Shown here one piece after another: positions 4,478 through 38,366 of a stretch of DNA of 64,000 nt; position 1 is the first letter of the stretch, and each line of letters starts with the position of its first letter. The DNA lies in assembly GCA_944389495.1 (NCBI GenBank), contig CALXMN010000003.1, positions 10,862 through 74,861 of the forward strand. The letters are read 5' to 3'. A program made the position numbers and the translations under genes. The notes under the pieces are model-generated. The model did not search any database and was not told the origin of the DNA. It worked only from the letters and a program-made list of their open reading frames with translations. Source of the stretch: an uncultured Alphaproteobacteria bacterium. GTDB lineage: Bacteria; Pseudomonadota; Alphaproteobacteria; Rs-D84.

Positions 4478-4759
4478 TTACTGCATTGCACACGCGTTGG
4501 TAAATTCATATGTCCCGGCGTTGTCTGTATACGGTGTGTTTGCCGGTGCGTACATAATGCACACCCCACTGGGGGCGGATACCAGGCAACTGGTTGCCGT
4601 TCCCAGTGACACATACCCGGTGGGACACGATCCATCAAAGATAGTCAGGCTGTAATTGTATTTGGCAATAAAGCCCGTAGGACACGATGTAGACGGCGCG
4701 GCGGCAAATGCGCCCACCGGCATACATATCATAATTAAAATAAATACCAATTTCATCAC
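4478..4759 (-). CDS. Family B small secreted Cys-rich protein (copy 1)
   Basis: Signal peptide, then AAPSTSCPTGF...GSCPTGYVS...CIMYAPANTPYTDNAGTYEFTNAC. It lies 9 bp downstream of family A copy 1. Confidence 0.6.
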   Translation of the reverse strand: MMKLVFILIMICMPVGAFAAAPSTSCPTGFIAKYNYSLTIFDGSCPTGYVSLGTATSCLVSAPSGVCIMYAPANTPYTDNAGTYEFTNACAMQ

Positions 4760-4768
4760 GGATGCCTT

Positions 4769-5194
4769 TTACATTAAACTTGAAAACGCTGCTGTCCGAA
4801 AAGATTCTGAGCTGGCGAATGAATACGCGCAATCATATGCACAGTCACTTGAACAGGTGCTGGCCGATCCGTATGAACCATTGTATAACCAGTAATATGA
4901 TACGGCTGGCCCAATCACTCTGCACCAACAATATTTATTGTTATTTAATGTGCCGCTAAGTTCCAACATATGTGCGGTTTCGCCGATGGTGCCGCCATTT
5001 TGGGATGAACATACGGCAATACCGGAAACATTGCGGCCACGGCACGAGTTTGCCCAATTATAACCACCGAGGCTTCCGTCATCTATCAGACAGGGTGTTT
5101 GTGGAATTTAAATGCATTGGGTAACGCCCTCGTTGGATGGTATTATATGCAGAATACATATTGCGGCGGTCGCGATTAGTATCTTGGATTTCAT
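4769..5194 (-). pseudogene. Family A secreted Cys-rich protein (copy 1), interrupted by one in-frame TAA at 5107-5109
   Basis: The reverse complement translates MKSKILIATAAICILHIIPSNEGVTQCI*IPQT...NNNKYCWCRVIGPAVSYYW...FRTAAFSSL. The stop replaces the Lys of the conserved VTKCVKL. RBS aggag precedes the ATG. Confidence 0.5.
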
Positions 5195-5300
5195 TTTTCT
5201 TATCTCCTGAGTTTCCTTATAAAAAACCACCAAATACATTGGTGGCCAGGAGATTCGAAACAATTACCAGAATTGTGTCACTTATTTGATATTCGTGACC
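5195..5300 (-). promoter_or_regulatory. Structured 5' leader of A copy 1: two hairpins, the second terminator-like (ccaccaatgtatttggtgg + T-tract) just before the RBS
   Basis: Same architecture as the leaders of A copies 3, 4 and 5. Confidence 0.4.
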
Positions 5301-5392
5301 CTCCTGACCAAAAAATCAGGAGTTTATTTATCGTCGTAATAAAAAACAACGCACACGCGCCGTTCAAATATCGACGCTGGTATTCGGGTTTC

Positions 5393-5423
5393 GACACCCC
5401 ATCAATGGAACACCCATTGACAA
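5393..5423. promoter_or_regulatory. Conserved palindromic upstream motif GACACCCCATCAATGGAACACCCATTGACAA (A copy 1)
   Basis: The same motif sits 150-230 bp upstream of A copies 3, 4 and 5. It has an internal inverted repeat, TCAATGG/CCATTGA. Confidence 0.45.
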
Positions 5424-5520
5424 TAATTATACTATCGCATTGCACAATTTAATGCAAGATGAAAAAGTCATAGTTCTTGATATGCTTATTATGTGTTTGC
5501 AAAGAAATTTGAAAACATAC

Positions 5521-5548
5521 AAAAAAAACGGGGCAGGGCCCCGTTTTT
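5521..5548 (-). terminator. Intrinsic terminator downstream of groEL
   Basis: aaaaaaaacggggcagggccccgttttttt. Confidence 0.6.
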
Positions 5549-7165
5549 TTACATCATTCCCGGCATACCGCCACCCATTTGTGGTGCGGGTTTTTCTTCG
5601 GGAATTTCAGACATAACCGCGCCCGTCGTTAACAATACGCCCGCGGTACTGGCCGCCGCCTGAATTGCGGTTTTAACGACCTTGGCCGGGTCAATAATTC
5701 CGGACTTCATCATATCGACATATTCGCCGGTTTGTGCATTATAACCAAAGTTATAATCTTTGGCCTCGGTTACTTTGCCAACAACAATTTCACCGGATAC
5801 GCCCGCATTTTCGGCAATTTGTGCGCACGGCGCAACCAGTGCACGTCGCACAATATCAATACCAACGTTTTGGTCGGCGTTTGTGCCGGTAAGTTTTTCC
5901 AATGCCGTTGTCGCACGAACCAGTGCGATACCACCACCTGCAACGATTCCTTCGGCCACGGCCGCGCGGGTTGCCGCCAACGCATCATCAACGCGATCTT
6001 TCTTTTCTTTAACTTCGACCTCGGTCATACCGCCGACCTTGATAACCGCGACGCCACCAACCAACTTTGCCAAACGTTCGGCCAATTTTTCGCGATCATA
6101 ATCACTGGTTGATGTTGACATCAGTTTACGTATTTCATCGGCGCGTGCATCGATTGCGGTCTTGTCGCCGCCGCCCTGGGCCACCAAAGTGGAATCTTTG
6201 GTAACGACTACTTTCTTTGCGCTGCCCAGTACGTCGGGTGTAATGTTTTCAAATGTCATACCCATATCATCTGATATAACTGTTGCACCGGTAACGGCGG
6301 CAATATCCTTTAACATTTCTTTGCGTCTGTCGCCAAAGCCCGGGGCCTTGACCGCACAAACCTTTAACCCACCGCGCAGTTTGTTCAGAACCAGTGTTGC
6401 CAACGCCTCGGATTCGACGTCTTCGGCGATAATCAGCAATGGACGTCCCGATTGTGCAATCGGTTCCAAAATCGGCAACAGTGCCTGAAGCCCGGTAATT
6501 TTCTTTTCAGAAACCAAGATTTGGGCCCCATCTAATTCAGCCAGCATTTTTTCGCTGTTGGTTACAAAGTATGGCGACATAAAGCCTTGGTCGAATTGCA
6601 TACCTTCAACGACATCAATTTCTGTTTCCAGACCTTTTGCCTCTTCAACGGTAATAACGCCTTCTTTTCCGACTTTTTCCATTGCATCCGCGATTTTTTG
6701 TCCGATATCGGCATCACTGTTTGCAGAAATTGTTGCGACCTGGGCGATTTCTGCGCTGTCCTTGACCGGGCGCGCGTGTTTTTCAATGTCTTTAACAACG
6801 GCGGCGGTTGCTAAATCAATTCCGCGTTTAACGTCCATAGGATTCATTCCTGCGGCAATAACACGTCGTCCTTCGCGAATAATTTTCTGTGCCAAAACGG
6901 TTGCGGTTGTTGTGCCGTCACCGGCGTCATCACCGGCCTTTTTTGCAACTTCTTGTACCATACGGGCGCCGATATTTTCCTGGGGGTCTTTCAGTGATAC
7001 GGCCTTGGCAACGGTAACACCATCCTTGGTGGCAACCGGTGCGCCGTATGATTTGTCAATTACGACCGTTCGACCCTTGGGGCCCATAGTAATTTTGACG
7101 GCATTGGCCAATTTATCAACGCCGGCCGCCAATTTATCTGTATCAAATACGATTTCTTTTGCCAT
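5549..7165 (-). CDS. groEL: Chaperonin GroEL (Hsp60)
   Basis: 538 aa. [10 protein letters not shown]...GGGMPGMM with the GGM-rich C-terminus. Canonical. Confidence 0.97.
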
Positions 7166-7183
7166 AGTTTAAATCCCCCTTGA

Positions 7184-7471
7184 TTATTCCAAGATACCCA
7201 AAATGTCTGATTCTTTGACCAGTACATAATCTTTGCCATCGATTTTTACTTCATTTGCAGATGCGGCCCATTTTGCGAACAGAACGACATCACCGACCTT
7301 GACCGTCATAGGAACCCGGTCGTCGCCATCAAATGCGCCATCGCCAACGGCAATTACCCGCCCGTGCGAAGGTTTTTCTTTTGCATTATCGGGGATGATT
7401 ATTCCGCCGGCCGTTTTATTTTCTTCTTCGATACGTTCCAACAGAACATAGTTATGCAATGGTTTAAACAT
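7184..7471 (-). CDS. groES: Co-chaperonin GroES (Hsp10)
   Basis: 95 aa. [28 protein letters not shown]... Directly upstream of groEL. Confidence 0.95.
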
Positions 7472-7606
7472 ATTTATTTCTCCTTATGTCTAAATGCTTC
7501 TGGGTATGAATATAGTGCACGGGTATTTGATTTCAAGTGCTTGATTTTATATCACCAGTGTACTATGCTTACCCCAACGACACAATGGGAATCAAAGGGG
7601 CGATAT

Positions 7607-7954
7607 ATGTATGACAAGAATAACGTTTTTGCGAAAATAATTCGTGGCGAATTGCCGTCAAACAAAATTTATGAAGATGACTATGCCTTGGCATTCCAGA
7701 ATATTGCACCACGTGCCAAGACGCACGTTTTGGTCATTCCCAAGGGTGAATATACCGATGTTTATGATTTCACGGCAAATGCGCCCGTTGCGGCCCAGGT
7801 TGGTTTTTGGTCTGCGGTTCGCAAGACGGTTGATACATTGGGGTTGTCGCAAAATTTTCGTATGGTTGCGAATACCGGCCCCGGTGCGGGTCAAAGCGTT
7901 TTTCATTTTCACGTACATATTATGAGTGATGAACGATTCAAAACGGACTTTTAA
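7607..7954 (+). CDS. HIT-family (histidine triad) hydrolase
   Basis: Ends with the HIT motif HFHVHIM. The ATG at 7607 follows an RBS. The ORF-track start at 7364 is an extension. Confidence 0.8.
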   Translation: MYDKNNVFAKIIRGELPSNKIYEDDYALAFQNIAPRAKTHVLVIPKGEYTDVYDFTANAPVAAQVGFWSAVRKTVDTLGLSQNFRMVANTGPGAGQSVFHFHVHIMSDERFKTDF

Positions 7955-8159
7955 AATTCGTGTTATGCCGCGTGCGCGTCATAACAAGATAACTGTTGAC
8001 CAAAACGGTACGTTGCGCGTACATACAACGGCCGCCCCGGTTGATGGGGCGGCAAATGCGGCGGTAATAAAAATGCTGGCCGAATACTTTGATGTACCGA
8101 AAACCAGCATAGAAATTATTCGCGGTTCTGCTTCGCGGGACAAAGTAATTTGTGTTTAA
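7926..8159 (+). CDS. DUF167 (YggU-like) protein
   Basis: 77 aa. KIRVMPRARHNKI...GAANAAVIKMLAEYFDVPKTSIEIIRGSASRDK. Overlaps the HIT gene by ~28 bp. Confidence 0.55.
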   Translation: MMNDSKRTFKIRVMPRARHNKITVDQNGTLRVHTTAAPVDGAANAAVIKMLAEYFDVPKTSIEIIRGSASRDKVICV

Positions 8160-8707
8160 TAATCTTTTATCCTTTTTATTAAATCCGCTACTGTATTTGC
8201 GCCAAGAATGTTATAGTCGTGAATGCTTTCTATAAAACCGCACTTTTGCATATGAATAAACAGGCGTACAAACGGAATCCAAAAACCGGCCGTATTCAAA
8301 AAGAACAGGGGTTTTTTTGATTCACCAATTTGCTGCATTGTCATAATGTCCGTTAATTCGTTCAGTGTGCCTATCCCGCCCGGCAGTATAATAAATGCGT
8401 CCGATAATTCGAACATTTTTTGTTTACGGTCATTGACGCCTGTGACAATTTCCACCTGGACCCCGGTATGAACAGGCTCCTGTTTTTCAATAACATTGTT
8501 TGTGGAAACGCCGATAACCTTGCCCCCGGCATCCAATGCCGCCGTTGCCACCGTTCCCATCAGACCAACATCGCCACCACCAAATACCATACGAATATCA
8601 TTTTTTCCCAAAAATTCGCCAATTGATGCCGCATCAACTGCAAACTGGGGGTGTGTGCCGAATTGATGTCCACAATATACAGCAATAGATTTTAACTTAC
8701 CCGTCAT
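8156..8707 (-). CDS. LOG-family cytokinin riboside 5'-monophosphate phosphoribohydrolase-like protein
   Basis: PGGIGTLNEL and GGG..GLMG motifs. Confidence 0.8.
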   Translation of the reverse strand: MTGKLKSIAVYCGHQFGTHPQFAVDAASIGEFLGKNDIRMVFGGGDVGLMGTVATAALDAGGKVIGVSTNNVIEKQEPVHTGVQVEIVTGVNDRKQKMFELSDAFIILPGGIGTLNELTDIMTMQQIGESKKPLFFLNTAGFWIPFVRLFIHMQKCGFIESIHDYNILGANTVADLIKRIKDY

Positions 8708-8757
8708 AACTTCTTTTTCCTTTATTTTTGCGAATTATATCATAAAATGACGGTGTT

Positions 8758-12260: not shown

Positions 12261-12262
12261 TG

Positions 12263-14410: not shown

Positions 14411-14519
14411 ATGCCGAATTTAAACGTCCGTTTTATCGGGCGTTTTTATTTTATAAAAAAATCCGATTTTCCGCACTTTTTGCTTTTATGTATATGCCGA
14501 AAAAAAACGGACGTTTGGA
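14411..14519. repeat. GCCGAA palindromic element (degenerate copy)
   Basis: ATGCCGAATTTAAACGTCCG...internal hairpin...ATGCCGAAAAAAAACGGACGTTTGGATTCGGC. Same architecture as the elements at 27885 and 49555. It lies directly upstream of A copy 2. Confidence 0.5.
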
Positions 14520-14545
14520 TTCGGCCAAAAATCAGGGGAAAAATA

Positions 14546-14953
14546 ATGGGTGTTTTAAAGACTTTGTTTTTGCTTGTAATCGCAATTACATTCTGCCAAC
14601 CGGCGTCTGCCGTTACCAAATGCGTAAAATTAAATTCATCAACAACGTGTTCCGATTATTCGGGCGCATTCGGTCAATCAAATTGGTCCGCGACATGCGG
14701 TGGCATATCAATACAGGGTGTTACATTTTGTGGTTCGCAAAACGGCGGTTCAGTTGGTGCAACAACCGACGCCGTTACGACCAGTTCAACCAATAAATAT
14801 TGTTGGTGTAAAATGGTATCACCTGCGGTGTCGCGCTGGGTTTTCGCCGGCGCGGATGATCATTGCGCGTACCGTTGCGCGGACGCCTGTGCGGGCTTCG
14901 CTCCGGCCACTGAGACTTTCCGGTCTGCGTTGTTCTCGGGTCTCGGCGATTGA
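14546..14953 (+). CDS. Family A secreted Cys-rich protein (copy 2)
   Basis: RBS aggggaaaaataATG. MGVLKTLFLLVIAITFCQPASAVTKCVKLNSS...NKYCWCKMVSPAVSRWVF...FRSALFSGLGD. Confidence 0.6.
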   Translation: MGVLKTLFLLVIAITFCQPASAVTKCVKLNSSTTCSDYSGAFGQSNWSATCGGISIQGVTFCGSQNGGSVGATTDAVTTSSTNKYCWCKMVSPAVSRWVFAGADDHCAYRCADACAGFAPATETFRSALFSGLGD

Positions 14954-15136: not shown

Positions 15137-15270
15137 CGTCTTTCTCTGCGGTGTCGCGCTGGGTTTTCAACAACGCGAACACGTCGGCCGGTTCTTGCGC
15201 GAACAACGTTCAGAACAATGCGTCTTTCCGGTCCGCGTTGTTCTCGGGTCTCGGCTCCTTTGACAGGAAT
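15137..15270 (+). pseudogene. Promoter-less 3' fragment of a family A gene (candidate silent cassette)
   Basis: Two conserved boxes, ctgcggtgtcgcgctgggttttc and tttccggtc(c/t)gcgttgttctcgggtctcggc, are shared with the 3' end of A copy 2 at 14815-14950. They bracket a divergent ~80-bp segment encoding VSRWVFNNANTSAGSCANNVQNNASFRSALFSGLG. It has no start codon and no signal peptide. Confidence 0.5.
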
Positions 15271-15498: not shown

Positions 15499-15825
15499 AT
15501 GACATTGGATGAAATAAATAACCTGAATGGCAATATGTGCCCGAGATTTTCAACGTTTGCTAGGGATAAATTGCCAATGCCCGGCAAGAAAAAACGCCTT
15601 GACGAGATATTAAACCGCGAAATCATCGTGACTGATTTCAGAATTACTAAATCTAAAAAACGTGATGGAACAGATTGTCTGCGATTGCAATTTATTATTG
15701 ATGGTAATGTCTGTGTTGCTTTTACTGGCAGTGCTGTTTTATCAGACCAAATTCAATCGGCCAAAGATAACATACCTTTTCGTGGAACAATTGTAAAAAT
15801 AGACCGATATTACTCTTTCTCTTAA
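15499..15825 (+). CDS. Hypothetical protein (108 aa), inserted between A and B of cassette copy 2
   Basis: ORF only. No recognisable motif. Confidence 0.3.
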   Translation: MTLDEINNLNGNMCPRFSTFARDKLPMPGKKKRLDEILNREIIVTDFRITKSKKRDGTDCLRLQFIIDGNVCVAFTGSAVLSDQIQSAKDNIPFRGTIVKIDRYYSFS

Positions 15826-15847: not shown

Positions 15848-16126
15848 ATGAAATATTTTTATGTTTATCTGCTTTTATTAATACCATCAACTGTATATGC
15901 CGCCGAACCATCAACATCGTGCCCATCGGGTTATGTCGCAATAGAAGAAGAATATATGGATATTGCGGATGGTTCGTGCCCATCTGGATATACATCCGCC
16001 GGTACGGCGGACAGTTGTCTGATTTCGTCACCCGCCGGTTCATGCATAATGTACGCACCGGCAAATACAGAATACAGTGATGATGTCGGTGCGTATAAAT
16101 TTATCGTTGATTGCCCGATGGAATAA
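15848..16126 (+). CDS. Family B small secreted Cys-rich protein (copy 2)
   Basis: RBS caggggg. MKYFYVYLLLLIPSTVYAAEPSTSCPSGYVAIEEEYMDIADGSCPSGYTSAGTADSCLISSPAGSCIMYAPANTEYSDDVGAYKFIVDCPME. Confidence 0.6.
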   Translation: MKYFYVYLLLLIPSTVYAAEPSTSCPSGYVAIEEEYMDIADGSCPSGYTSAGTADSCLISSPAGSCIMYAPANTEYSDDVGAYKFIVDCPME

Positions 16127-16507: not shown

Positions 16508-16584
16508 TGGCGCGCCCAGAAGGATTCGAACCCTCAACCTTCTGATCCGTAGTCAGATGCTCTATCCAATTGAGCCATGGGCGC
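16508..16584 (-). tRNA. tRNA-Arg (anticodon ACG)
   Basis: The reverse complement folds as a cloverleaf: GCGCCCA/TGGGCGC acceptor, anticodon loop CTACGGA, T-loop TTCGAAT, 3' CCA. Confidence 0.85.
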
Positions 16585-18182: not shown

Positions 18183-18250
18183 AGCAAATGGTTCCTGTTA
18201 AATTTTTAGTATTCGCCACATATTATAAACAAAAAACGGGGCGCGTCATT

Positions 18251-19411
18251 ATGAAAAATATATTTCGAATATTTATATTTCTGTTTTGTTTTGATGCGGT
18301 TGCGTCACCTGGGGCGTTGAACAATATTTTTTCTGGGATGCCGTCATATCTGATGGATACAGCCCGTGCCTGGGCCGGTGTTTATTCTGATTTTGGTCCC
18401 GGTGCAGAAATATCGTCATATCTGGACGGCACGCGTTCGGATAATATTGCCCAGTATTTGGATGCAATATCATTATTGGGATTTAACAATACGTCGATGG
18501 CGATATTTGATGTTACAACACATCTTAATCGGGTATATGACGTAATAGATGCGCCATTGGTTGCGCGCCGTGGGGATTGCACCCCAAACCTGGGGCGGTG
18601 TGAATATGGACGTCGCACATTGGTTATTGATGGCCACGTATTTGGAACCTTTTCTGAATCCAGTGCGGGAAATAATGGTGACTTTAAAACAAATAATACA
18701 GGTTTTGTTGTAAATGCCAAAAGTTACTTTGCAGACGGATGGTTGTTTGGTGTGGAATACACGCGTACTATGACGGACACGCACGATACGCGAATTTATT
18801 CTGATGCAATTGGTAACAGTGTAATGATGTTTACGCAATACCTGGGGCGACACGGAATATTTTGGAATTTGGGGATAAATGCGGGCCATACCAGTTGGAA
18901 TACAGACAAAATGATTGTGGGAATTGCGGACCCGGGAACGTATGATACCGACTTTTATTCTGCCCAGACTAATTTTGGTATTCGAATGCAGCGCGGACGG
19001 GTATCTTTAACACCTGGATTCGCGGCCAGGTATGTACGAATGGGGGCCGACAAGTATATTGATTCAGCCACCCAGGAATTTGATGATTGGTGGTATAATG
19101 CGATGACAGCAATGGCATCGTTGGATATGGGGTTTGATTTTATCGGCAGTGATTTTGTGTTACGCCCAAGATTACGTATTGGTGGTGGCTATGACGTGAT
19201 AAGTAATGGCACAGATAAAATAAATGTTCGATTGCCCGGCAATCAATCATATGACATACCAATTGATATACCGCATCGTACGATGTTGGTGGCGGGACTG
19301 GGGCTGGATTTTTTTAACCAGTACTTTACCGCGGGGCTTGGGTATAATTTTGATATGCGTTCGGATTTTGTATCGCATACGATTATGGCAAAAATAAAGT
19401 TAGCGTTTTAA
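18251..19411 (+). CDS. Putative outer-membrane beta-barrel protein. Hypothetical.
   Basis: Signal peptide (MKNIFRIFIFLFCFDAVASPGA). The C-terminus ends in an aromatic residue (...AKIKLAF), and the sequence has an alternating amphipathic pattern. Confidence 0.4.
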   Translation: MKNIFRIFIFLFCFDAVASPGALNNIFSGMPSYLMDTARAWAGVYSDFGPGAEISSYLDGTRSDNIAQYLDAISLLGFNNTSMAIFDVTTHLNRVYDVIDAPLVARRGDCTPNLGRCEYGRRTLVIDGHVFGTFSESSAGNNGDFKTNNTGFVVNAKSYFADGWLFGVEYTRTMTDTHDTRIYSDAIGNSVMMFTQYLGRHGIFWNLGINAGHTSWNTDKMIVGIADPGTYDTDFYSAQTNFGIRMQRGRVSLTPGFAARYVRMGADKYIDSATQEFDDWWYNAMTAMASLDMGFDFIGSDFVLRPRLRIGGGYDVISNGTDKINVRLPGNQSYDIPIDIPHRTMLVAGLGLDFFNQYFTAGLGYNFDMRSDFVSHTIMAKIKLAF

Positions 19412-20634: not shown

Positions 20635-20722
20635 AATAAAAATATTATAAAAATAAATTTTATAAATTTTTATAAAAAAATAAGCATTACATTAATGTGC
20701 CATTGTGCGTTAATATACTTAT

Positions 20723-20750
20723 GTCAATGGGCGTTCCATTGATGGGGTGT
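20723..20750. promoter_or_regulatory. Conserved palindromic upstream motif (A copy 3): TGTCAATGGGCGTTCCATTGATGGGGTGT
   Basis: Same motif as at 5393, 27129 and 38208. Its orientation relative to the downstream A gene is constant. Confidence 0.45.
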
Positions 20751-20759
20751 GAAGACCTC

Positions 20760-20893
20760 TGCCTTAGCGTCGGAAAATAAGAAAACGTGCGGCGCGTGTA
20801 AATGCGCCGGTTTTAATATTCCGACGATAAATAAACTCCTGACCAACAATGTATTTGGTGGTTTTCTTATTCAGAAAAAACAGGAGTTTGAAA
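20760..20893 (+). promoter_or_regulatory. Structured 5' leader of A copy 3 with a hairpin before RBS caggag
   Basis: Contains ctcctgaccaacaatgtatttggtggttttc, related to the copy 1 leader. Confidence 0.35.
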
Positions 20894-21325
20894 ATGAAAT
20901 TAAAAATTTTGATTGCGGGCGTTGCGGTATTCTGTGTTATCGTTGCGCCGGCTGCGGCGGTTGTAAAGTGTGTAAAATTGACACAAAGTTCAACCTGTAC
21001 ATCAACAACTGCTAACAATTCTGGTCCAGAATGGACCGCAACCTGTGGTGGAACACCAATCAAAGGCATCGGTATTTGCAGCGATAAAAAAGGAAGTTCT
21101 GTCGGCTCAAAATCATCCAGTCTGACCATAGATTACTATACAGACTAAAATAAGTATTGTTGGTGTAAAATTATCAGTCCCGCCGTATCATCACAATGGA
21201 CATACGATGATTATAATTACACTTCGGGGGCTGATTGTGCGCGTGATTGTGCCTATGGCTGTGCCGCAGACATAGAAATAAATGCTGCGCTTCGTTCTTC
21301 GTTATTATATGGTTTTTCTGATTAA
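20894..21325 (+). pseudogene. Family A secreted Cys-rich protein (copy 3), interrupted by one in-frame TAA at 21146-21148
   Basis: MKLKILIAGVAVFCVIVAPAAAVVKCVKLTQSS...TIDYYTD*NKYCWCKIISPAVSSQW...AALRSSLLYGFSD. One frame throughout, with conserved motifs on both sides of the stop. Confidence 0.5.
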
Positions 21326-21341
21326 AAACGGGTAATTAAAA

Positions 21342-21617
21342 ATGAAAAAAATAATATTATTTTTGGCAATTGTGCCGTGTGCATCATTTGCGGCCGCGCC
21401 GTCAACATCGTGTCCATCGGGCACAATGGCCATAAACAAACAATATATGATAATTGGTAATACATCGTGTCCGTCGGGGTATTCATATGTTGGGGCGGCA
21501 TATACGTGCCTTTTGACATATCGCGGCAGTTCGTGTCTGATGTATGCGCCGGTAAACACGGAATACACAGATGCCGCCGGCACATACGAATATACCGCCG
21601 CCTGTCCATTGGAATAA
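21342..21617 (+). CDS. Family B small secreted Cys-rich protein (copy 3)
   Basis: MKKIILFLAIVPCASFAAAPSTSCPSGTMAINKQYMIIGNTSCPSGYSYVGAAYTCL...CLMYAPVNTEYTDAAGTYEYTAACPLE. Confidence 0.6.
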   Translation: MKKIILFLAIVPCASFAAAPSTSCPSGTMAINKQYMIIGNTSCPSGYSYVGAAYTCLLTYRGSSCLMYAPVNTEYTDAAGTYEYTAACPLE

Positions 21618-25839: not shown

Positions 25840-26235
25840 TCATTGCAAGGAAGGGCGCCCGGCAATCTTCTCTTGTCATTGCGAGCCACGTCAGTGGCGT
25901 GGCAATCCAGTAAATAAAAAAGCACTGCGGGCATCGCCCGCAGACATAATAAACCTGAATTGCTTCGTTTCACTCGCAATGACAATGTACTTATGCAGCC
26001 GTTGTTTCCTATAGTTGTACGACTTTTGTCTCCCCATTTGTCATTGCAAGGGAGGAGCACCCGGCAATCTTCTTTTGTCATTGCGAGCCACGTCAGTGGC
26101 GTGGCAATCCATAATACGGTATTTGCCACCGCAAATAAGTTTATAATAACTGGATCGCCACGGTCGTTACACTCCCTCGCGATGACAAGGGTTGGGGACA
26201 CGGGCGCCACCAGTGCGTCACGTTACGGGATGACG
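25840..26235. repeat. Array of MITE-like palindromic elements with terminal inverted repeats TTGTCATTGCGAG / CTCGCAATGACAA
   Basis: Several units, each with an internal hairpin (GCCACGTCAGTGGCGTGGC, CTGCGGGCATCGCCCGCAG). The array is reiterated at 36992-37300 and 52375-52470. Confidence 0.6.
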
Positions 26236-26238: not shown

Positions 26239-26526
26239 TTATTCCAGTGGACAGGCCTGGTCAAATTCATATGTGCCGTATGTGTCTGTGTATTCTGTAT
26301 ATGCCGGTGCATACATAATGCACGCCCCAGACGGTGACGCCACCAAACAACTGTCCGCAGTGCCGACGGATGTGTATCCGGATGGGCACGAACCATCCGA
26401 TATTATTAAATATTCTTCTTCTATTGTTGCATAGTCCGACGGGCACGATGTTGACGGTGCGGCGGCAAATGATGCACACGGCACAATCGCCATAATTAAA
26501 ACCGATATTCGTTTCATATTCGCCAC
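26239..26526 (-). CDS. Family B small secreted Cys-rich protein (copy 4)
   Basis: MANMKRISVLIMAIVPCASFAAAPSTSCPSDYATIEEEYLIISDGSCPSGYTSVGTADSCLVASPSGACIMYAPAYTEYTDTYGTYEFDQACPLE. Confidence 0.6.
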   Translation of the reverse strand: MANMKRISVLIMAIVPCASFAAAPSTSCPSDYATIEEEYLIISDGSCPSGYTSVGTADSCLVASPSGACIMYAPAYTEYTDTYGTYEFDQACPLE

Positions 26527-26532: not shown

Positions 26533-26961
26533 TTAGTCAGACAGATTACTGAACATCGCGGACCGGAAAGACGCATTGTCCGCTGCGCGGTACGCACAGC
26601 TGTACGCGCAACGATAGCCACAATACGACGTCCCGAGGACGTTGTTGTACACCCAAGACGACACGGCCGGAGATACCATTTTGCACCAGCAATATTTGTC
26701 ATCAGTACCGCCACTAATTTCCAAAGCCGTCGCTGTCTGGCCAATTGAACTGCCACTTGTGCTGGAACATTGACTTATGCCCCTTATTGCGATACTTGTT
26801 CCACTGGTGGTACAATTTGATGTCCAGTCAACAACATTATACCCAGGCTCAACAAACGAACACGTTGTTGATGATGACAGTTTTACGCATTTTGTGACGG
26901 CCGCGGCCGGTGGGATTGTGGCCGCACAAATCAGACCCGCGATTAATATTTTTGATTTCAT
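26533..26961 (-). CDS. Family A secreted Cys-rich protein (copy 4)
   Basis: RBS aaggag. MKSKILIAGLICAATIPPAAAVTKCVKLSSSTTC...DDKYCWCKMVSPAVSSWVY...ASFRSAMFSNLSD. Confidence 0.6.
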   Translation of the reverse strand: MKSKILIAGLICAATIPPAAAVTKCVKLSSSTTCSFVEPGYNVVDWTSNCTTSGTSIAIRGISQCSSTSGSSIGQTATALEISGGTDDKYCWCKMVSPAVSSWVYNNVLGTSYCGYRCAYSCAYRAADNASFRSAMFSNLSD

Positions 26962-27078
26962 TGTGAACACTCCTTGTGTTTGGGTAAAACAAAAACCACC
27001 AAATTTAAGGTGGTTGGAGGTTCATAGCTATATCAGGTATAGTGTGCTTATTCTATATATTCGCAGCCCTCCAACCCG
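26962..27078 (-). promoter_or_regulatory. Conserved structured leader of A copy 4: long-range helix GGTTGGAGG/CCTCCAACC, then terminator-like hairpin CCACCTTAAATTTGGTGG + T-tract, then RBS
   Basis: About 100 nt, nearly identical to 38050-38165 upstream of A copy 5. Confidence 0.45.
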
Positions 27079-27128
27079 AAACAGTTGGAGCATTTTTACA
27101 TCTTGGTTTGATGCCTGAAAACGGGCTA

Positions 27129-27160
27129 TGACACCCCATCAATGGAACACCCATTGACAA
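27129..27160. promoter_or_regulatory. Conserved palindromic upstream motif (A copy 4): TGACACCCCATCAATGGAACACCCATTGACAA
   Basis: See 5393, 20723 and 38208. Confidence 0.45.
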
Positions 27161-27270
27161 CAGTTATTATAATCACAACAAAAATTCATTTGCAATATGA
27201 AAAATAAATCCTTTGATTTTAGTACGCGGTGCATATAAAATGTAAAACATAAATAAACAAGGAGTTGTCT

Positions 27271-27810: not shown

Positions 27811-27814
27811 TAAA

Positions 27815-27884: not shown

Positions 27885-27993
27885 ATGCCGAAAACAAACC
27901 ACCGGTTTATGGTGGCTTTTTTTGTGTTTTAAAAATCCCTGTTTTCTGGGGCTTTTTGTTTTTTTATTGTGCCGAATACAAACGGTGGTTTTG
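27885..27993. repeat. GCCGAA palindromic element
   Basis: ATGCCGAAAACAAACCACCGGTTTATGGTGG...internal hairpin (aaaatccctgttttctggggcttttt)...GCCGAATACAAACGGTGGTTTT. About 110 bp, with inverted termini. Copies at 49555 and 14411. Confidence 0.55.
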
Positions 27994-28015
27994 CACAGAT
28001 TTTGACTAAGGGGGA

Positions 28016-28726
28016 ATGTGTAAAATGAACCGTTCTTGTATAAGATTTTTTGGATATATTTTTGCCGGGATTACGTCGCTGATGGGGCGTATTAATAATG
28101 CCACTGCGGGACAAATAGGTAATACTTACTATGAAACAATTGTAAACCAAGTCCAGGCATATGGTTCAAGGTGTCGCAGCATAATTCAAGAATTATGCCC
28201 CGGCGCATACTGCAACGATTTTTCTGTTGATGGTTATGAATGTCGCGGTGATGGTTCGGGAATAATTTGTAACTCGCAATGGGTTTTTGCATATCGCAAT
28301 GCCGATTATACAGATGATATGGGGGTATATGCTTCTGATTCAAACAGTGACGGATGTCATTATACGGAATATGGAATGTGGAACAATTTTTCGCATTATG
28401 AATTTGATTCGTGTGTATTCGGTTCATATATTACAACGTCATCTATCCCGTCAAGAATTTATAATCTTTCCCAGATGGAACAATATTGCGCCCCGTGTTC
28501 GGGCCTTGATTATCGTGATGGTCAATTTATTACATATGACCCCAGTGGCGCGTTAAGCAGCAACTTTTTTTCTTGGTATTCACTGAATACCAGTAATCCA
28601 AATTCCCAGGTTGGAATAACAACCTGTCGCGCAGACCAAAATTATAGCGCCGGGGAACTTGAATTTTCGGATTCGTCGGGGCACGGAACAATTACAATTC
28701 CTATAAGTTGCACATATGTTGAATAG
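28016..28726 (+). CDS. Large Cys-rich secreted protein (about 236 aa). Hypothetical.
   Basis: Hydrophobic N-terminus with many Cys. Shares the YTDDMGVY...YTEYGMWNNFSHYEFDSC motif with family B. Followed by a glycosyltransferase gene. Confidence 0.5.
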   Translation: MCKMNRSCIRFFGYIFAGITSLMGRINNATAGQIGNTYYETIVNQVQAYGSRCRSIIQELCPGAYCNDFSVDGYECRGDGSGIICNSQWVFAYRNADYTDDMGVYASDSNSDGCHYTEYGMWNNFSHYEFDSCVFGSYITTSSIPSRIYNLSQMEQYCAPCSGLDYRDGQFITYDPSGALSSNFFSWYSLNTSNPNSQVGITTCRADQNYSAGELEFSDSSGHGTITIPISCTYVE

Positions 28727-30613: not shown

Positions 30614-30619
30614 TAATAA

Positions 30620-30660: not shown

Positions 30661-30715
30661 TTTACTGGTAAAACCCAAACAAACGTTTTATCATACAACG
30701 CAAAGGATTTTTACA

Positions 30716-31771: not shown

Positions 31772-31797
31772 TATATTAACGGGAAAGGAGAGCAAAA

Positions 31798-32541: not shown

Positions 32542-32543
32542 TT

Positions 32544-33464: not shown

Positions 33465-33520
33465 GGGCGGGTGTCCATATTGAATACCGTGGTAATGCAA
33501 AGATAATGCATCATAGTTTT

Positions 33521-34282
33521 TTATTTTTTACCGGATTCAAAATCAGCCGGTTTTTTATCCAGTTTCTTTGTCCATTCGTTATCCGGGAAATTTAATCGCA
33601 ACATTTCTGCATATCCATATGCCTGTTCTGGCAGGCCAATCGCGGTATAGCATTCGGTCAGCCGATATAAAGCCTCGGGCGTCATAACGGTTTCTTGGGC
33701 CGTCTGAACGACGGATTGCAGACGTGAAATTGCACTGGGCCAATTTTTGCGCGCCATATCCGCGCGTGCGGAATACATTGCCTTGCCTGCGACATAATTT
33801 TTCAAGATGTTTATTTTGTTTTCTGCATTTTTTGCATACTGGGACTTTGGAAAACGGTCAACCAGTTGTTGGAACTGTTGCAGTGCATATGCCGACATTC
33901 CGGGCTCGCGACGAACATCGCTGACCTGGCGATAATAGCACATTCCGCGCAGATACAGCATATACGGCACATCACGGTGTCCCGGATGAAAACGCATAAA
34001 ACGATCAACGGTCATAATTGCACCGGCAAAGTCATCATCCAAATATTGTGAATATGCCGCCATAACCAATGCATCTGCGGCCCACGCACTGGACGGGTAT
34101 TGATTTTCCGCCTGTAAAAATTCTGTGGCGGCGGATTCATAATCTTCGTCATAAAATTCTTCATATGCAGATTTATATATTTCCGCCAAACTGCGTTCAA
34201 TCGTTATATCATTATCGGTTCCGGCGCACGCCCCCAATACGGTCGTTACCCCCAGTAAAGCAAATATTTTTTTTATGTGCAT
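33521..34282 (-). CDS. bamD: Outer membrane protein assembly factor BamD (TPR lipoprotein)
   Basis: Lipobox LGACAG, TPR repeats and a YkuD/ComL-like pattern. Confidence 0.7.
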   Translation of the reverse strand: MHIKKIFALLGVTTVLGACAGTDNDITIERSLAEIYKSAYEEFYDEDYESAATEFLQAENQYPSSAWAADALVMAAYSQYLDDDFAGAIMTVDRFMRFHPGHRDVPYMLYLRGMCYYRQVSDVRREPGMSAYALQQFQQLVDRFPKSQYAKNAENKINILKNYVAGKAMYSARADMARKNWPSAISRLQSVVQTAQETVMTPEALYRLTECYTAIGLPEQAYGYAEMLRLNFPDNEWTKKLDKKPADFESGKK

Positions 34283-34328
34283 ATTCCTGCCTTGATTTTA
34301 TTTCTTAATCAGCAGTATAATCGAAACT

Positions 34329-35789
34329 ATGAAACTAGGCAAACATATTTTCGGGGTCAGTGTTATGACAGGAATCAGTCGTGTTTTTGGATTCCTGCGT
34401 GACTTGTTAATTGCGCACGTGTTTGGTGCGGGGCGCCTGTCGGATATATTTTTGGCGGCATTCAAATTGCCAAATTTGTTTCGTGATTTATTGGGCGAAG
34501 GCGCATTGTCATCAATTTTTATCCCTATGTACACAGATCGTAACAAGGATGAAAATTTTGCCAAGAATGTATTTTCGTGGTTAATGATGATATTGCTTGG
34601 CATTACGCTGCTGTTCGAAGTGTTTATGCCAATCGTTGTGTGGATATTGGCACCGGGTTTTGCCGACGATCCGGGCAAGATGCAGTTAACCGTAACAATA
34701 TCGCGAATAATGTTTTGGTATGTCGTGTTTATATGTGCGTCTGCATTTTTGTCGGCAATATTAAACGCATTTTCACGTTTTTTGTTGGTGGCGTTTATGC
34801 CGGTGTTGTTGAACATAATGCTTATTGGTGCGTTATTAATGGCGGCGTGGTTTGCGCCAGAAACAGTTTTGTACATTATGGCGTTTACGGTGGTGCTGTC
34901 TGGGATTGTTCAGTTATGGATTTTATGGTCGCGCATCCGCCGACATCATTTTGGATTACGGCTGGTGCGGCCGCGATGGACGCCCGCGATACGCAGTATG
35001 TTTCGTCGTCTGGGGATAAGTATTATTGGTAACGGTTTTTATCAGATAACAATCATTGTTGGCACCTTGGTGGCCAGTTTCCAGAACGGTGCGGTATCGT
35101 GGCTGTATTATTCTGACCGAATGATCCAGTTACCATTTGCCTTGATTGGATTGGCGGTTGGAACGGTGTTAATATCATCGATTTCAAATGCGATGGCTGA
35201 AAAAAATATGCGCAGCGTTTATATCCAGCAAAATTCGTCTATGCGACAATCTATGATGTTGATAATTCCGTGTGTTGTTGGGTTGTTCGTTCTTGCGGAA
35301 CCGATTATAAGATGTTTGTTTGAATACGGTGCGTGGACACCCGAATCAACGCACGCGGTCGCGATGGCAATGATGATCCAGGTTCTGGTTCTGCCGGCAA
35401 TGATGATAAGCCAGATTTACAGTAAAACACTTTACGCATCCCAAGATGTTCGCACGCCGGTCAGAACCAGTATTATATCACTGGGGGTGGCGGCATTAAT
35501 TTATATTTCTGCGTTTCACTTTATCGGATATTTGGCCATACCGGTCGGCATAGTGGCCAGTGGTTATTTAAAGAACTATTTATTGCATCGTGCGTGCTAT
35601 CGTCGTGGTTTGATACATATTGAATCGCGTACGCGTCGCGCAATTGCGGCATTTACTGTACTGGCCGTCATAATGGGGTGCGGGCTGTGGTTTGTGCCTG
35701 TTCCGAATATTTGGATGTTGTTCGTTGCGATTGGTGGCTTTGCGGTAATTTATATGCCAATTGCATATTTGATTGACAGAAAAATATAG
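34329..35789 (+). CDS. murJ: Lipid II flippase MurJ
   Basis: 486 aa, polytopic. N-terminus FGFLRDLLIAHVFGAG...DIFLAAFKLPNLFRDLLGEGALSSIFIP. Confidence 0.85.
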   Translation: MKLGKHIFGVSVMTGISRVFGFLRDLLIAHVFGAGRLSDIFLAAFKLPNLFRDLLGEGALSSIFIPMYTDRNKDENFAKNVFSWLMMILLGITLLFEVFMPIVVWILAPGFADDPGKMQLTVTISRIMFWYVVFICASAFLSAILNAFSRFLLVAFMPVLLNIMLIGALLMAAWFAPETVLYIMAFTVVLSGIVQLWILWSRIRRHHFGLRLVRPRWTPAIRSMFRRLGISIIGNGFYQITIIVGTLVASFQNGAVSWLYYSDRMIQLPFALIGLAVGTVLISSISNAMAEKNMRSVYIQQNSSMRQSMMLIIPCVVGLFVLAEPIIRCLFEYGAWTPESTHAVAMAMMIQVLVLPAMMISQIYSKTLYASQDVRTPVRTSIISLGVAALIYISAFHFIGYLAIPVGIVASGYLKNYLLHRACYRRGLIHIESRTRRAIAAFTVLAVIMGCGLWFVPVPNIWMLFVAIGGFAVIYMPIAYLIDRKI

Positions 35790-35860
35790 TCAAAATAAAG
35801 TTGAAAGCGGACTTTTTATATGATAAAATTTAATCATAAATGAATGTAAGGAGTCCCATA

Positions 35861-36784
35861 ATGAAAAAAATAATATCTTTGGCTGTATTGGCGGCTATGT
35901 TTGCGGGGTGCACGGATCTTAGTACTACCACAGATACCAGTGGCGTAAACGGCTATGCGGCCGACGGTTTCGGTGAAGAAACATTAATCACAACGGATGA
36001 ATCGTTAAATAATACATATTTGTTGGCGCCGGCCCCCAAATATTATGTGGGCAGTGCGTACAAGGTCGAAGATGTACAATACATCCCGGTTGAAGATTTA
36101 ACATATAATCAAACCGGTATTGCGGGCATTATCCCGGCGGAATTAAACGGAACAAAAACCAGTAATGGCGAAGTATTTGATATGAACCAAATGGTCGCCA
36201 CCAGCAAGACGTTACCATTACCAACAATTGCGCGTGTAACAAATCTGGACAATGGTCAATCGGTTGTTGTTCGTGTAAATAATCGCGGTCCATTTGTAAA
36301 TACCCGCATTATGGATTTGTCACCGGCCGCGGCCCAGAAAATTGGTATGAATGGTCAAACCAAGGTCCAGGTCCAGGTTATGGCCAACGAATCTGTTGCG
36401 GTTAAAAATGCAACGATTGGTGCGACGGCTCCGGCGCAACAGCCGGCTGTTCAGCCCGCACCGACCCAAACCGTTGAAACAACAACTGTTGTAACGACAA
36501 CCACGGCACCGGATGCCGCCGCCCCGGTGGCCCAGACGGCGGGTGGTGATTACAGTGTCCAGATTGCCGCATTTTATGCCCAGGACAGCGCGGATTCATT
36601 GGCGGCCCGTATGGCAAAATATGGTAATGCCGTTGTTGTGCAAGAGGGGGATATGTACAAAGTACGCATAGTTAATCTGGATGCGGCCCAGGCGCGTGGT
36701 GTAATTGATGCGCTTCGTAACAACGAAGGTATGGCACCCGGTCTGTTGCGAAACGGCCGTTGGGTTAACGCCGACAGCATTTAA
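35861..36784 (+). CDS. rlpA: Septal ring lytic transglycosylase RlpA (DPBB domain + C-terminal SPOR domain)
   Basis: GEVFDMNQMVATSKTLPLPTIARVTNLDNGQSVVVRVNNRGPF and SPOR (YSVQIAAFYAQDSADSLAARMAKYG...). RBS aaggag. Confidence 0.8.
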   Translation: MKKIISLAVLAAMFAGCTDLSTTTDTSGVNGYAADGFGEETLITTDESLNNTYLLAPAPKYYVGSAYKVEDVQYIPVEDLTYNQTGIAGIIPAELNGTKTSNGEVFDMNQMVATSKTLPLPTIARVTNLDNGQSVVVRVNNRGPFVNTRIMDLSPAAAQKIGMNGQTKVQVQVMANESVAVKNATIGATAPAQQPAVQPAPTQTVETTTVVTTTTAPDAAAPVAQTAGGDYSVQIAAFYAQDSADSLAARMAKYGNAVVVQEGDMYKVRIVNLDAAQARGVIDALRNNEGMAPGLLRNGRWVNADSI

Positions 36785-36810
36785 AAACGGGGCTTTGCCC
36801 CGTTTTTGTT
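36784..36810 (+). terminator. Intrinsic terminator after rlpA
   Basis: aaaaacggggctttgccccgtttttg. Confidence 0.55.
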
Positions 36811-36991
36811 AGGGGGCAGAGTATAGAGTACAAATGTTGGCCGCGTCCGAGTGGGTGCGTTTTTTTATTTACTGGATCGTCACATAGTTACTCGTGTTTT
36901 TTTTGTATGCGTGTGTCGCTCGGACGCGTTGCGTCCTGTGCGTATCCTCGGTATTTGTTCAAACTGCGCTATCGCTTGTTTTCACATACTC

Positions 36992-37300
36992 GGATTCATT
37001 GCGAGCCACGTTAGTGGCGCGGCAATCCTGTAAATAAAAAAGTACCGCGGGCATCGCCCGCAGACATAATAAAACTGGATTGCTTCGTTTTACTCGCAAT
37101 GACAATGTACTTATGCAGCCGTTGTTTCCTATAGTTGTACAACTTTTGCCTTTCCTCTTGTTATTGCGAGCCACACAGTGGCGTGGCAATCCATAATACG
37201 GTATTTGCCGCCGCAAATAAGTTTATAATAACTGGATCGCCACGGTCGTTACACTCCCTCGCGATGACAAGGGTGGGGGACACTGGCACCACCAGTGCGT
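36992..37300. repeat. MITE-like TTGTCATTGCGAG-type palindromic element array, part of the segmental duplication
   Basis: Homologous to 25869-26235, with point differences. Some differences are compensatory within hairpins. Confidence 0.6.
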
Positions 37301-37320
37301 CACGTTACGGGATGACGGAA

Positions 37321-37608
37321 TTATTCCAGCGGACAGGCCTGGTCAAATTCATATGTGCCGTATGTGTCTGTGTATTCTGTATATGCCGGTGCATACATAA
37401 TGTACGAACCCGCGGGTGACGAAATCAGACAACTGGTTGCAGTGCCGGCGGATGTGTAACCCGATGGGCACGAACCATCCGCAATATCCATATGTTCTTC
37501 CACCACCGTGACATATCCCGATGGACACGAAGTGGACGGCGCGGCGGCAAATGATGCACACGGCACAATCGCCATAATTAAAACCGATATTCGTTTCATA
37601 TTCGCCAC
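37321..37608 (-). CDS. Family B small secreted Cys-rich protein (copy 5)
   Basis: MANMKRISVLIMAIVPCASFAAAPSTSCPSGYVTVVEEHMDIADGSCPSGYTSAGTATSCLISSPAGSYIMYAPAYTEYTDTYGTYEFDQACPLE. Confidence 0.6.
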   Translation of the reverse strand: MANMKRISVLIMAIVPCASFAAAPSTSCPSGYVTVVEEHMDIADGSCPSGYTSAGTATSCLISSPAGSYIMYAPAYTEYTDTYGTYEFDQACPLE

Positions 37609-37614
37609 TCCAAT

Positions 37615-38040
37615 TTAGTCAGACAGATTACTGAACAACGCGGACCGTGTTGTTTCATTGGCACGGATAATGCTAGCACAATAATTACTACAAGAAGAGC
37701 AAGTCATAGCAGCGGAAACAGGGCCATTTATTACACCAAAGTATACCCATTGCGATACTGCGGGACTAATCATTCTGCACCAACAATACTCATTTGAATC
37801 AATTGAAGAAGCCATAGATAATGAAGTTGCCGTTGCGCCAAGGTCTTCGCCTTTTTGGTTGCTACAAAATGAAACGCCGCTGACAGACACGCCATTACAA
37901 GTCATAGACCAATCTGACCCTTTGCCGGAAACGTTTGAACACGTTGTTGATGACGTTAATTTTACGCATTTGGTAACGGCAAACGCCGGTGGGATTGTGG
38001 CCGCGCACAGCAGGCCGGCAATTAATAAATATTTTTTCAT
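37615..38040 (-). CDS. Family A secreted Cys-rich protein (copy 5)
   Basis: RBS aggagg. MKKYLLIAGLLCAATIPPAFAVTKCVKLTSSTTC...NEYCWCRMISPAVSQWVY...TTRSALFSNLSD. The ORF-track N-terminal extension is spurious. Confidence 0.6.
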   Translation of the reverse strand: MKKYLLIAGLLCAATIPPAFAVTKCVKLTSSTTCSNVSGKGSDWSMTCNGVSVSGVSFCSNQKGEDLGATATSLSMASSIDSNEYCWCRMISPAVSQWVYFGVINGPVSAAMTCSSCSNYCASIIRANETTRSALFSNLSD

Positions 38041-38049
38041 TCTAAACCT

Positions 38050-38165
38050 CCTTGTTTTCATTGCGAATGAAAAAACCACCAAATTTAAGGTGGTTGGAGG
38101 TTCATAGCTATATCAGGTATAGTGTGCTTATTCTATATATTCGCAACCCTCCAACCCGAAAGTGG
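38050..38165 (-). promoter_or_regulatory. Conserved structured leader of A copy 5
   Basis: Near-identical to 26962-27078. Confidence 0.45.
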
Positions 38166-38207
38166 AGGTGATTTTTTATGTCATCTCTGACAATTACAAA
38201 GGGCTAC

Positions 38208-38237
38208 TACACCCCATCAGTGAATACCCACTGACGG
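38208..38237. promoter_or_regulatory. Conserved palindromic upstream motif, variant TACACCCCATCAGTGAATACCCACTGACGG (A copy 5)
   Basis: The inverted repeat changes from CAATGG/CCATTG to CAGTG/CACTG. The palindrome is kept. Confidence 0.45.
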
Positions 38238-38366
38238 TTATTATAATATCGTGTTATGTTTATTAATGCAAGGGGTTAATACTTATACCCGACGTTCACG
38301 ATTACCGCCGAACCACCCCACAAATCATATACGTTGGAATAAAAACGCCGCCCATTTGGGCGGAAT

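Follow-up and report, generated by a model that had tools for sequence, protein, structure and literature searches.

The 64,000-nucleotide stretch of an uncultured Alphaproteobacteria bacterium described in this article (contig CALXMN010000003.1, lineage Rs-D84; hereafter the window) carries five pairs of genes, A and B, which encode small, cysteine-rich proteins with the features of export and which are each placed among different housekeeping genes. Probably, A is the target protein of a diversity-generating retroelement (DGR) in gut Alphaproteobacteria with reduced genomes (Candidatus Enterousia and relatives) and B is its conserved, co-expressed and exported partner, the DGR of the window itself being a relic. 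In the mechanism proposed, the RNA of a template repeat (TR) would be reverse-transcribed with misincorporation at adenines and the resulting cDNA would replace the last ~100 nt of A; the corresponding variable region (VR) occupies the last ~40 codons of the gene.

Complete DGR Loci in Related Genomes

The evidence for this assignment comes in the first place from syntenic loci of related gut Alphaproteobacteria (Candidatus Enterousia), in which the gene order is A-TR-accessory-B-RT (RT, reverse transcriptase). On a 225-kb human-gut contig (L066) the order is A-TR-ORF108-B-RT, ORF108 being 93.5% identical to the 108-aa open reading frame (ORF) of that name in the window, and the substitutions that separate TR from VR fall without exception on TR adenines (20/20), none of the 105 non-A positions having changed. 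A second locus (L027) contains, in this order, A (2432-2869), TR (3234-3332), an ORF108 homologue (88% identity), B and RT, and 13 of 13 substitutions in the repeat core are at adenines; in a third (L065) 14 of the 16 are. The RT of L027 matches RVT_1 (E 3e-12), carries the motif IGNLTSQ, does not reach the cut-offs of the models for group II introns and retrons, and is 43% identical (E 3e-86) to the RT of a viral DGR locus (Caudoviricetes vir525) and 34% identical to that of the ANMV-1 virus.

Variation within populations was observed in one protein cluster (P0035; 15 members at 90% identity), which is near-invariant except at residues encoded by AAY or GAC codons of the TR and shows the variable pattern WVF-xxxx-GSAS-x-CA-xx-CA-xx-CA-xx-AA-xx-AS. 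This pattern is the defining signature of mutagenic retrohoming, a process that would rewrite the 'xx' positions of the segment WVF-xxxx-GSAS-x-CAxxCAxxCAxx-AAxx-ASFRS. Compared with its TR, the VR at L066:2236-2301 contains an insertion of 1 nt that shifts the frame of the A C-terminus, and the same product is present as P0065; it represents either a faulty homing product or the consensus of a mixed population.

The Remnant at Locus 2 of the Window

Locus 2 comprises the following features:

14546-14953, (+) strand: A2, an intact ORF with the A motifs; its VR (~14823-14947) is homologous to the TR copy
15146-15255, (+) strand: TR homologue, a non-coding, AAC-rich copy of the A 3' end that reads ..WVFNNANTSAGSCANNVQNNASFRSALFSGLGS
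15499-15825, (+) strand: ORF108, a 108-aa gene of the DGR-associated accessory type
15848-16126, (+) strand: B2, ORF of the conserved 92-aa exported partner

The AAC-rich TR and ORF108, both lying between A2 and B2, identify this locus as the remnant of a DGR. The frame of the TR is rich in AAC codons (WVF NN A N TSAGS C A NN VQ NN ASFRSALFSGLGS), and its homology with the VR stops after the GC-rich ..GGGTCTCGGC. Beyond the stop codon of A2 there are hairpins; these two features may correspond to the IMH/IMH* sites and the hairpin involved in homing. A decayed gene remnant was also considered for the A fragment at 15148-15255, an interpretation that was dropped given its AAC-codon content and the neighboring ORF108.

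By tblastn, ORF108 matches ORFs located directly after the DGR RT in the ANMV-1 virus (E 1e-15, 46% identity), a record annotated 'DGR target protein adtA ... reverse transcriptase', and the equivalent ORF directly after the RT in Caudoviricetes vir525 (E 5e-18, 42% identity). Genes similar to ORF108 stand directly after DGR-type RTs in an unrelated metagenome contig (L067:949-2254) and in two archaeal viruses (L058, L059). Downstream of B2, at the place taken by the RT in complete systems, there is a tRNA-Arg (16508-16584) followed by a thymidine kinase gene, a synteny that matches L003, where a 134-aa stump of the RT survives.

The VRs of A1-A5 were compared with a full-length sister TR. A2 differs from it at 19 of 25 TR-A positions versus 8 of 65 non-A positions, and A4 at 14 of 27 versus 5 of 69, the variable codons of A4 being TAC, AGC, CGC and GAC against AAC in the TR. 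When the TR of the window is taken as the reference, 13 of 16 TR-A positions differ in the A2 VR versus 11 of 59 non-A positions.

Several observations weigh against a DGR origin of the five cassettes, or against its operation at present. No RT was detected in the 64-kb window when the RTs of two DGR loci served as tblastn queries (E<=10), and none follows B2 in three other assemblies of the species, which share this RT-less layout as well as a 24-nt deletion in the TR. The window TR is 24 nt (two CAxx units) shorter than the TRs of relatives, is without 24 nt that its own A2 VR has, and includes 7 AAY codons, versus 12-14 in relatives. Since no RT occurs in the window or in these assemblies and the TR has lost 24 nt, diversification is probably not operating in the window, unless an RT acts in trans. 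The VRs of A1, A3 and A5 show no adenine bias relative to the sister TR. Strain-to-strain variation in four clusters of paralogues of the leader-1 type (leader-1 is described below) is not concentrated in the VR; these paralogues are stable between strains, and P0001 and A4 have identical VRs. With respect to three other assemblies, A2 differs in a single VR codon (14885-14887, GCC vs AGA) and is otherwise ~98.4% identical over 1.6 kb, and this change involves three adjacent bases and is not of the adenine type. ORF108 is not Avd by Pfam and is without a Pfam or NCBIfam match; the paper on ANMV-1 does not describe the ORF108 homologue within that DGR and labels a different small ORF as Avd (PMC4372165). 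As regards the proteins, the signal peptides of A and B were assessed by eye, from N-termini that are basic, hydrophobic and of the AxA type, as in Sec-type signal peptides, and the AlphaFold model of B was unusable (pLDDT, the predicted local distance difference test score, of 47).

Taking these points together with the adenine-specific variation, we conclude that the window contains a decayed DGR and five target/partner cassettes, the VRs of which were written by the element or descend from copies so written, and that, provided no RT gene lies in another part of the genome, these VRs no longer change.

Integrity of the Cassettes and Exchange of Segments

The remaining cassettes and cassette fragments of the window are:

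4769-5194, (-) strand: A1, one in-frame TAA at codon 29, probable pseudogene
4478-4756, (-) strand: B1, ORF
20894-21331, (+) strand: A3, one in-frame TAA at codon 85, probable pseudogene
21342-21617, (+) strand: B3, ORF
26533-26961, (-) strand: A4, intact ORF, VR at ~26560-26655
26239-26517, (-) strand: B4, ORF, 100% identical to P0121, which is itself on 4 other contigs
37615-38040, (-) strand: A5, intact ORF with a diverged VR
37321-37599, (-) strand: B5, ORF in which one conserved Cys is replaced by Tyr
52250-52357 and 52444-52554, (+) strand: two B C-terminal fragments with a palindromic repeat of the type described below between them

An earlier note on this DNA had described five loci with a shared A+B arrangement, and both ORFs were found at each of them. 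The A gene is intact at three of the five loci (A2, A4 and A5), A1 and A3 being interrupted by one in-frame TAA each, and the B ORF has a length of 91-93 aa at all five. The close spacing between A and B holds for four loci (10-15 nt) but not for locus 2, where the gap of 894 nt contains the A 3'-end copy (15146-15255) and the 108-aa ORF (15499-15825). The neighbors of the cassettes include GroEL, AlaRS, FtsH, LemA, dCTP deaminase and M23 peptidases; these distinct neighbors, together with the divergence between paralogues (amino-acid identity of 39-48% for A and 58-84% for B), show that the copies are not assembly artefacts of a single locus, a possibility raised in the earlier note.

Loci 4 and 5 constitute a mosaic of nucleotide identity: the leader is 85-98% identical over its 3' half, the core of A 30-50%, the end of A with the start of B 98%, the middle of B 65-80% and the end of B with ~300 nt downstream 95-98%, which indicates that cassettes exchange segments. 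The idea of a recently active family is thus borne out by the near-identical segments of loci 4 and 5 but not by the A cores, which are old. Palindromic repeats resembling repetitive extragenic palindromic (REP) elements (..TGTCATTGCGAGCCACGTCAGTGGCGTGGCAATCCA) occur at 25849-25909, 26051-26111 and 52397-52457, and 25876-26050 is equal to 36996-37170. These REP-like repeats are located past the ends of B4 and B5, in the space that separates the two B fragments and, in L027, in that separating A from the TR, and they may mark sites of frequent recombination.

The mosaic of loci 4 and 5 would also be at home in an ordinary multigene variable surface antigen family produced by point mutation under selection from host or phage and by gene conversion involving silent as well as expressed copies, to which the retroelement remnants would be incidental (cf. 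Neisseria pilS, Anaplasma msp2, Mycoplasma vsp); the pseudogenised A copies and the loose A and B fragments resemble silent donor cassettes, and the RT is missing in the species. Such an origin is unlikely, given that neither gene conversion nor ordinary mutation can produce the adenine pattern of the complete loci (20/20, 13/13 and 14/16) and of A2 and A4, that the population variation is confined to TR-AAY positions, and that recombination accounts for the flanks and not for the VR. The ratio of nonsynonymous to synonymous differences per site (pN/pS) does not favor it either, as it stays at or below 0.9 in every sliding segment.

That ratio was calculated along A and B, the earlier note having suggested a dN/dS analysis. 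It amounts to 0.8-0.9 in the variable stretches of A and to 0.1-0.3 in the motifs and nowhere exceeds 1; because synonymous sites are saturated (pS ~0.6), these values are not decisive on positive selection. With A as a DGR target, the hypervariability of its C-terminus is ascribed mainly to adenine-directed mutagenic retrohoming, in place of the diversifying selection put forward before; gene conversion, the other process then considered, accounts for the flanks and for the locus 4/5 mosaic but not for this hypervariability. The conserved ends around variable parts from which both suggestions had started are confirmed. The cassettes other than that of locus 2 are paralogous A+B pairs with their own promoters, most of them with a structured leader RNA of ~230 nt ending in an intrinsic terminator, and seem to serve as stored, now-stable variants that also exchange segments by recombination.

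The A and B Protein Families

Alignments of 41 A and 45 B homologues revealed near-invariant motifs, namely VTKCVKL, KYCWCKMVSPAVS.WV and FRSALFS in A, and a duplicated SCPSGY box and CIMYAP..T.YTD..GTYEF..ACPLE in B, so that the motifs already quoted from the window hold, invariant or nearly so, across both families. Both proteins contain many Cys, as had been noticed, but the counts had to be corrected: 9 are conserved in mature A and 5 in mature B, B5 having one fewer.

No significant Pfam, NCBIfam or PHROGs family was obtained for A, B or ORF108, and PDB sequence-profile searches with A and B returned nothing but an antibody chain (E 0.83). The earlier judgment that A and B fit no recognised family therefore stands, and the pilin or bacteriocin assignment that it recommended looking for was not obtained in any of these four resources. 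A comparison of A and B by hhalign showed no relationship between them. A tblastn search with A in 50,697 phage records gave no match, which argues that the cassette is not phage-borne.

The searches yielded 285 homologues of A and 266-438 of B, every one of them unnamed or 'hypothetical'; where an organism is named, it is Candidatus Enterousia or an uncultured gut (Alpha)proteobacterium. With each species represented by one genome, a scan located 54 loci, all of them in metagenome-assembled genomes (MAGs) of this kind from chicken, human, sheep, deer and horse. Candidatus Enterousia belongs to the order Rs-D84 and has genomes of <1 Mb, without flagella and without a respiratory chain (PMC12306168). 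In other genomes B comes 13-20 nt after A at ~40 of the 55 loci, in keeping with the proposed conserved, closely spaced operon, and at least 12 loci in one MAG attest to the expansion of the family that five copies had suggested. B is under purifying selection. The C-terminus (residues 196-250) of a 253-aa protein encoded at 60476-61237 resembles the B profile (hhalign 73% probability, E 3e-5).

The AlphaFold2 model of A (pLDDT 81; predicted template modeling score, pTM, 0.74) has five strands and, after them, two helices at the C-terminus (residues 111-137), with scores of 91-95 in the 10-residue blocks 11-13 (residues 101-130). In this model the VR corresponds to the end of the last strand plus the C-terminal helices, and the segment rewritten by retrohoming would lie in the helices, packed on the five-stranded sheet. 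Foldseek gave no match for the model in the PDB (best E 2.1) or in BFVD (best E 1.4), and no signal of a C-type lectin (C-Lec) or FGE-sulfatase-type fold was detected in A, either with Pfam at E<=1 or in the fold search with the predicted model. Annotated VRs are reported to be systematically of the C-Lec type (PMC8144416; bioRxiv 2024.11.15.621889). If the model is right, A is a scaffold other than C-Lec. The CWC motif of the strand and the C-x3-C-x3-C motif of the helix may form a disulfide staple, to judge from the spacing of the motifs.

An exhaustive profile search retrieved 1234 clusters (50% identity) with an A-like domain. Proteins of 784, 839, 4750 and 6218 aa have 4-6 such domains in tandem, and arrays of 3-6 copies occur in P0272, P0335, P0416, P0275 and P0279 from other metagenomes. 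A Pfam scan, made for one of the giants only (P0275, 4750 aa), showed Listeria-Bacteroides repeats and an endonuclease I domain in addition. A protein of 253-274 aa in horse MAGs (L052:1973-2797, L044:2024-2785) ends in an A domain, and its SGSYNDLSNKP repeats have matches among phage proteins with tail fibre or minor tail annotations (E 1e-6 to 2e-11) and in phrog_17509. No papers were found in the literature on the SGSYNDLSNKP repeat or on a DGR in Rs-D84. The A-like domain is an undescribed, widespread and probably extracellular domain family, and the contexts in which it occurs fit, as circumstantial evidence, an extracellular, distal, binding-type module.

The A and B proteins are small, exported and disulfide-rich and their family is multicopy and variable, all of which would also suit a two-component toxin or bacteriocin that is secreted, or an antimicrobial pair of the defensin type, diversified through an arms race with competitors; the CWC plus C-x3-C-x3-C spacing would recall that of cysteine-stabilised alpha/beta toxins. 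This role, of which the earlier note had listed the toxin or bacteriocin form, is very improbable and found no support, since no toxin or bacteriocin family was matched in Pfam, NCBIfam, PHROGs or the PDB and no immunity gene, ABC exporter, double-glycine leader or usher gene stands beside any of the five cassettes. The tandem arrangement of the A domain in giant proteins, of which the one scanned with Pfam has adhesin-type repeats, does not fit it either.

With 9 conserved Cys in A and 5 in B, both odd numbers, intermolecular bonds are possible, and a disulfide between A and B is suggested, speculatively. Odd Cys numbers, an obligate gene pair and a reduced genome might also be expected of disulfide-cross-linked structural envelope proteins such as the Cys-rich outer-membrane complex of chlamydial OmcA/OmcB, the variation being a by-product of surface exposure; the likeness of A and B to the Omc proteins is one that we assume. 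We give this explanation hardly any credence: a structural protein would be an unexpected target of a DGR and would hardly be expected as 5-12 divergent paralogues with pseudogenes, A and B have no lipobox or beta-barrel signal, and the Pfam and PDB searches showed no sequence similarity to the Omc proteins. As a DGR target and its partner, A and B would instead make up a secreted or surface ligand-binding pair, possibly disulfide-linked, which may function in attachment to, or evasion of, changing partners such as the host mucosa or immunoglobulin A, other microbes or phages.

A Leader RNA and a Second Upstream Element

A leader RNA (leader-1) and a second shared upstream element (leader-2) precede the cassettes and other genes for Cys-rich exported proteins. 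They were located as follows:

5195-5480, (-) strand: leader-1 of cassette 1 (nhmmer), with an optional P2 extension hairpin
20656-20893, (+) strand: leader-1 of cassette 3 (nhmmer), helices P3-P5 deleted
26962-27236, (-) strand: leader-1 of cassette 4 (nhmmer E 1.6e-67, fold, covariation)
38041-38310, (-) strand: leader-1 of cassette 5 (nhmmer E 1.3e-71)
60199-60475, (+) strand: fifth leader-1 copy (nhmmer E 3.9e-48), ahead of a 253-aa Cys-rich exported protein (60476-61237)
14411-14545, (+) strand: leader-2, upstream of A2 and different from leader-1

Leader-1 is ~230 nt long and precedes A in cassettes 1, 3, 4 and 5 as well as the gene at 60476-61237; in other genomes it is found ahead of almost every A gene (nhmmer). 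In cassette 4 it is laid out as a -10 box, helices P1-P5 and a closing helix, a CCACC..GGTGG+U-tract terminator and then the ribosome-binding site (RBS). The model of leader-1, with 43 sequences, 45 pairs and eight defined helices (P1, closing helix, P2-P5, terminator), is paired in 95.1% of cells, versus 37-50% when the partners are slid. Changes on both sides occur in 25 of the 45 pairs, compensatory cells number 263 versus 80 in shuffles, and the covariation score of 0.376, versus 0.156 for shuffled alignments, was reached by none of 500 shuffles. RNAalifold, used independently, found 25 of 32 pairs to be compensated.

The 3' arm of P3 is G-rich (GGTTGGAGG or GTCAGGAGG) and can pair either with the upstream CTCCAAC/CTCCTGA (mean -12.9 kcal/mol) or with the downstream CCTCCAACC/CCTCCTGACC (mean -19.4 kcal/mol), the latter partner overlapping the 5' arm of the CCACC..GGTGG+U6 terminator. 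Both of these alternative pairings covary between two sequence classes, the cross-class controls giving -8.1 and -12.6. We infer switching from these sequences, and the layout is consistent with a transcription attenuator or riboswitch. It shares with attenuating riboswitches and leader RNAs a multi-helix 5' untranslated region of ~200 nt with conserved unpaired nucleotides, a G-rich strand with two C-rich partners, an overlap with the terminator and an RBS beyond it; unlike the known ones, leader-1 stands only before genes for Cys-rich exported proteins and not before metabolic or transport genes. It has no Rfam match, as a scan of the window at the gathering threshold gave tRNAs only and the best E value in a permissive scan of 26940-27260 was 4.3. 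A leader peptide was ruled out, the sole ATG not being conserved. At locus 3 the leader is without P3-P5 and the A gene is a pseudogene.

Leader-2 was also observed at 27885-28015 and 49555-49680, ahead of two other Cys-rich exported ORFs, and is characterised by the direct repeat ATGCCGAA.ACAAAC.., CCACCG/CGGTGG arms and terminator-like hairpins. The window also encodes three Cys-rich proteins of larger size with signal peptides (28016-28726, 49681-50391 and 60476-61237; 233-253 aa, 13-28 Cys, no Pfam match); their C-termini resemble that of B (..D..G.Y.....C...), and the third has leader-1. Together with A and B, these three look like one regulon of exported disulfide-rich proteins.

Other Features of the Window

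Close to locus 2, a 407-aa ORF (18188-19411) has an autotransporter beta-domain (Pfam E 9e-16) and might give this organism one way of displaying proteins on its surface. Within 44006-44272, the 3' end of a tRNA-Gly plus its terminator (89 nt) is duplicated 115 nt downstream with 99% identity (44069-44157 and 44184-44272), a duplication that looks like the scar of an attachment (att) site.

Relation to Known Retroelements and Biological Meaning

To our knowledge, DGRs are the only natural system of targeted protein hypermutation outside vertebrate immunity. DGRs are known already; what is new here is the apparently non-C-Lec scaffold, the embedded partner gene, the ORF108 family, the paralogue archive and the leader RNA. 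The elements of Bordetella phage BPP-1 (Mtd, TR, Avd, bRT), Treponema denticola (TvpA) and Legionella (LdtA) have in common with the one described here a 3'-terminal VR in the target gene, a TR close by that differs from it almost only at adenines, AAC codons as the diversified ones, a small accessory gene, an RVT_1-family RT with a [LIV]GxxxSQ-type motif, a GC-rich end of the VR/TR homology and an exported, presumably ligand-binding target. Unlike these, A is a domain of ~120 aa with 9 Cys and a VR predicted to be helical, not C-Lec by sequence or predicted structure; a conserved exported B lies between the accessory gene and the RT, and the accessory is not Avd-like by Pfam. Many target+partner paralogues are present per genome of <1 Mb, and the window is without an RT and has a shortened TR.

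DGRs of reduced-genome bacteria of the Candidate Phyla Radiation (CPR) and of DPANN archaea have reportedly been described by Paul and colleagues in 2017. These too belong to metabolically dependent hosts with small genomes, which diversify surface proteins by DGR, presumably for attachment to partners; the present case differs in the hosts, which are Alphaproteobacteria of the animal gut, in the target scaffold, in the paralogue expansion and in the RNA leader. The closest relatives of the Enterousia-type RT and of ORF108 are those of the archaeal virus ANMV-1 (Paul et al., 2015; PMC4372165) and of Caudoviricetes vir525, which differ in being viral, in having targets of the tail-fibre type and in the order RT-ORF108, versus TR-ORF108-B-RT in the relatives of Enterousia. 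A C-Lec fold is reported for the variable proteins of archaeal DGRs (PMC5006420).

More tentatively, and with slightly more doubt than confidence, we propose that these cassettes combine a non-C-Lec DGR scaffold (~120 aa with nine Cys, its variable helix pinned to the sheet by CxC/CxxxCxxxC disulfides) with an obligate partner B, an archive of frozen variants in a genome of <1 Mb and a novel riboswitch-like leader. If true, this would provide a second structural solution for massive sequence variation and a class of regulatory RNA dedicated to it. A small disulfide-rich protein that displays its VR on a helix would widen the range of hypermutable scaffolds and could be a compact template for engineered binders. 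Leader-1 is an unreported structured RNA with strong covariation, and ORF108 is a candidate for a new DGR accessory family common to bacteria and archaeal viruses. For Candidatus Enterousia, an uncultured gut lineage with genomes of <1 Mb, the A+B cassettes would offer a first functional handle, and the investment of >1% of the genome of the lineage in them suggests that attachment or evasion is central to the way it lives.

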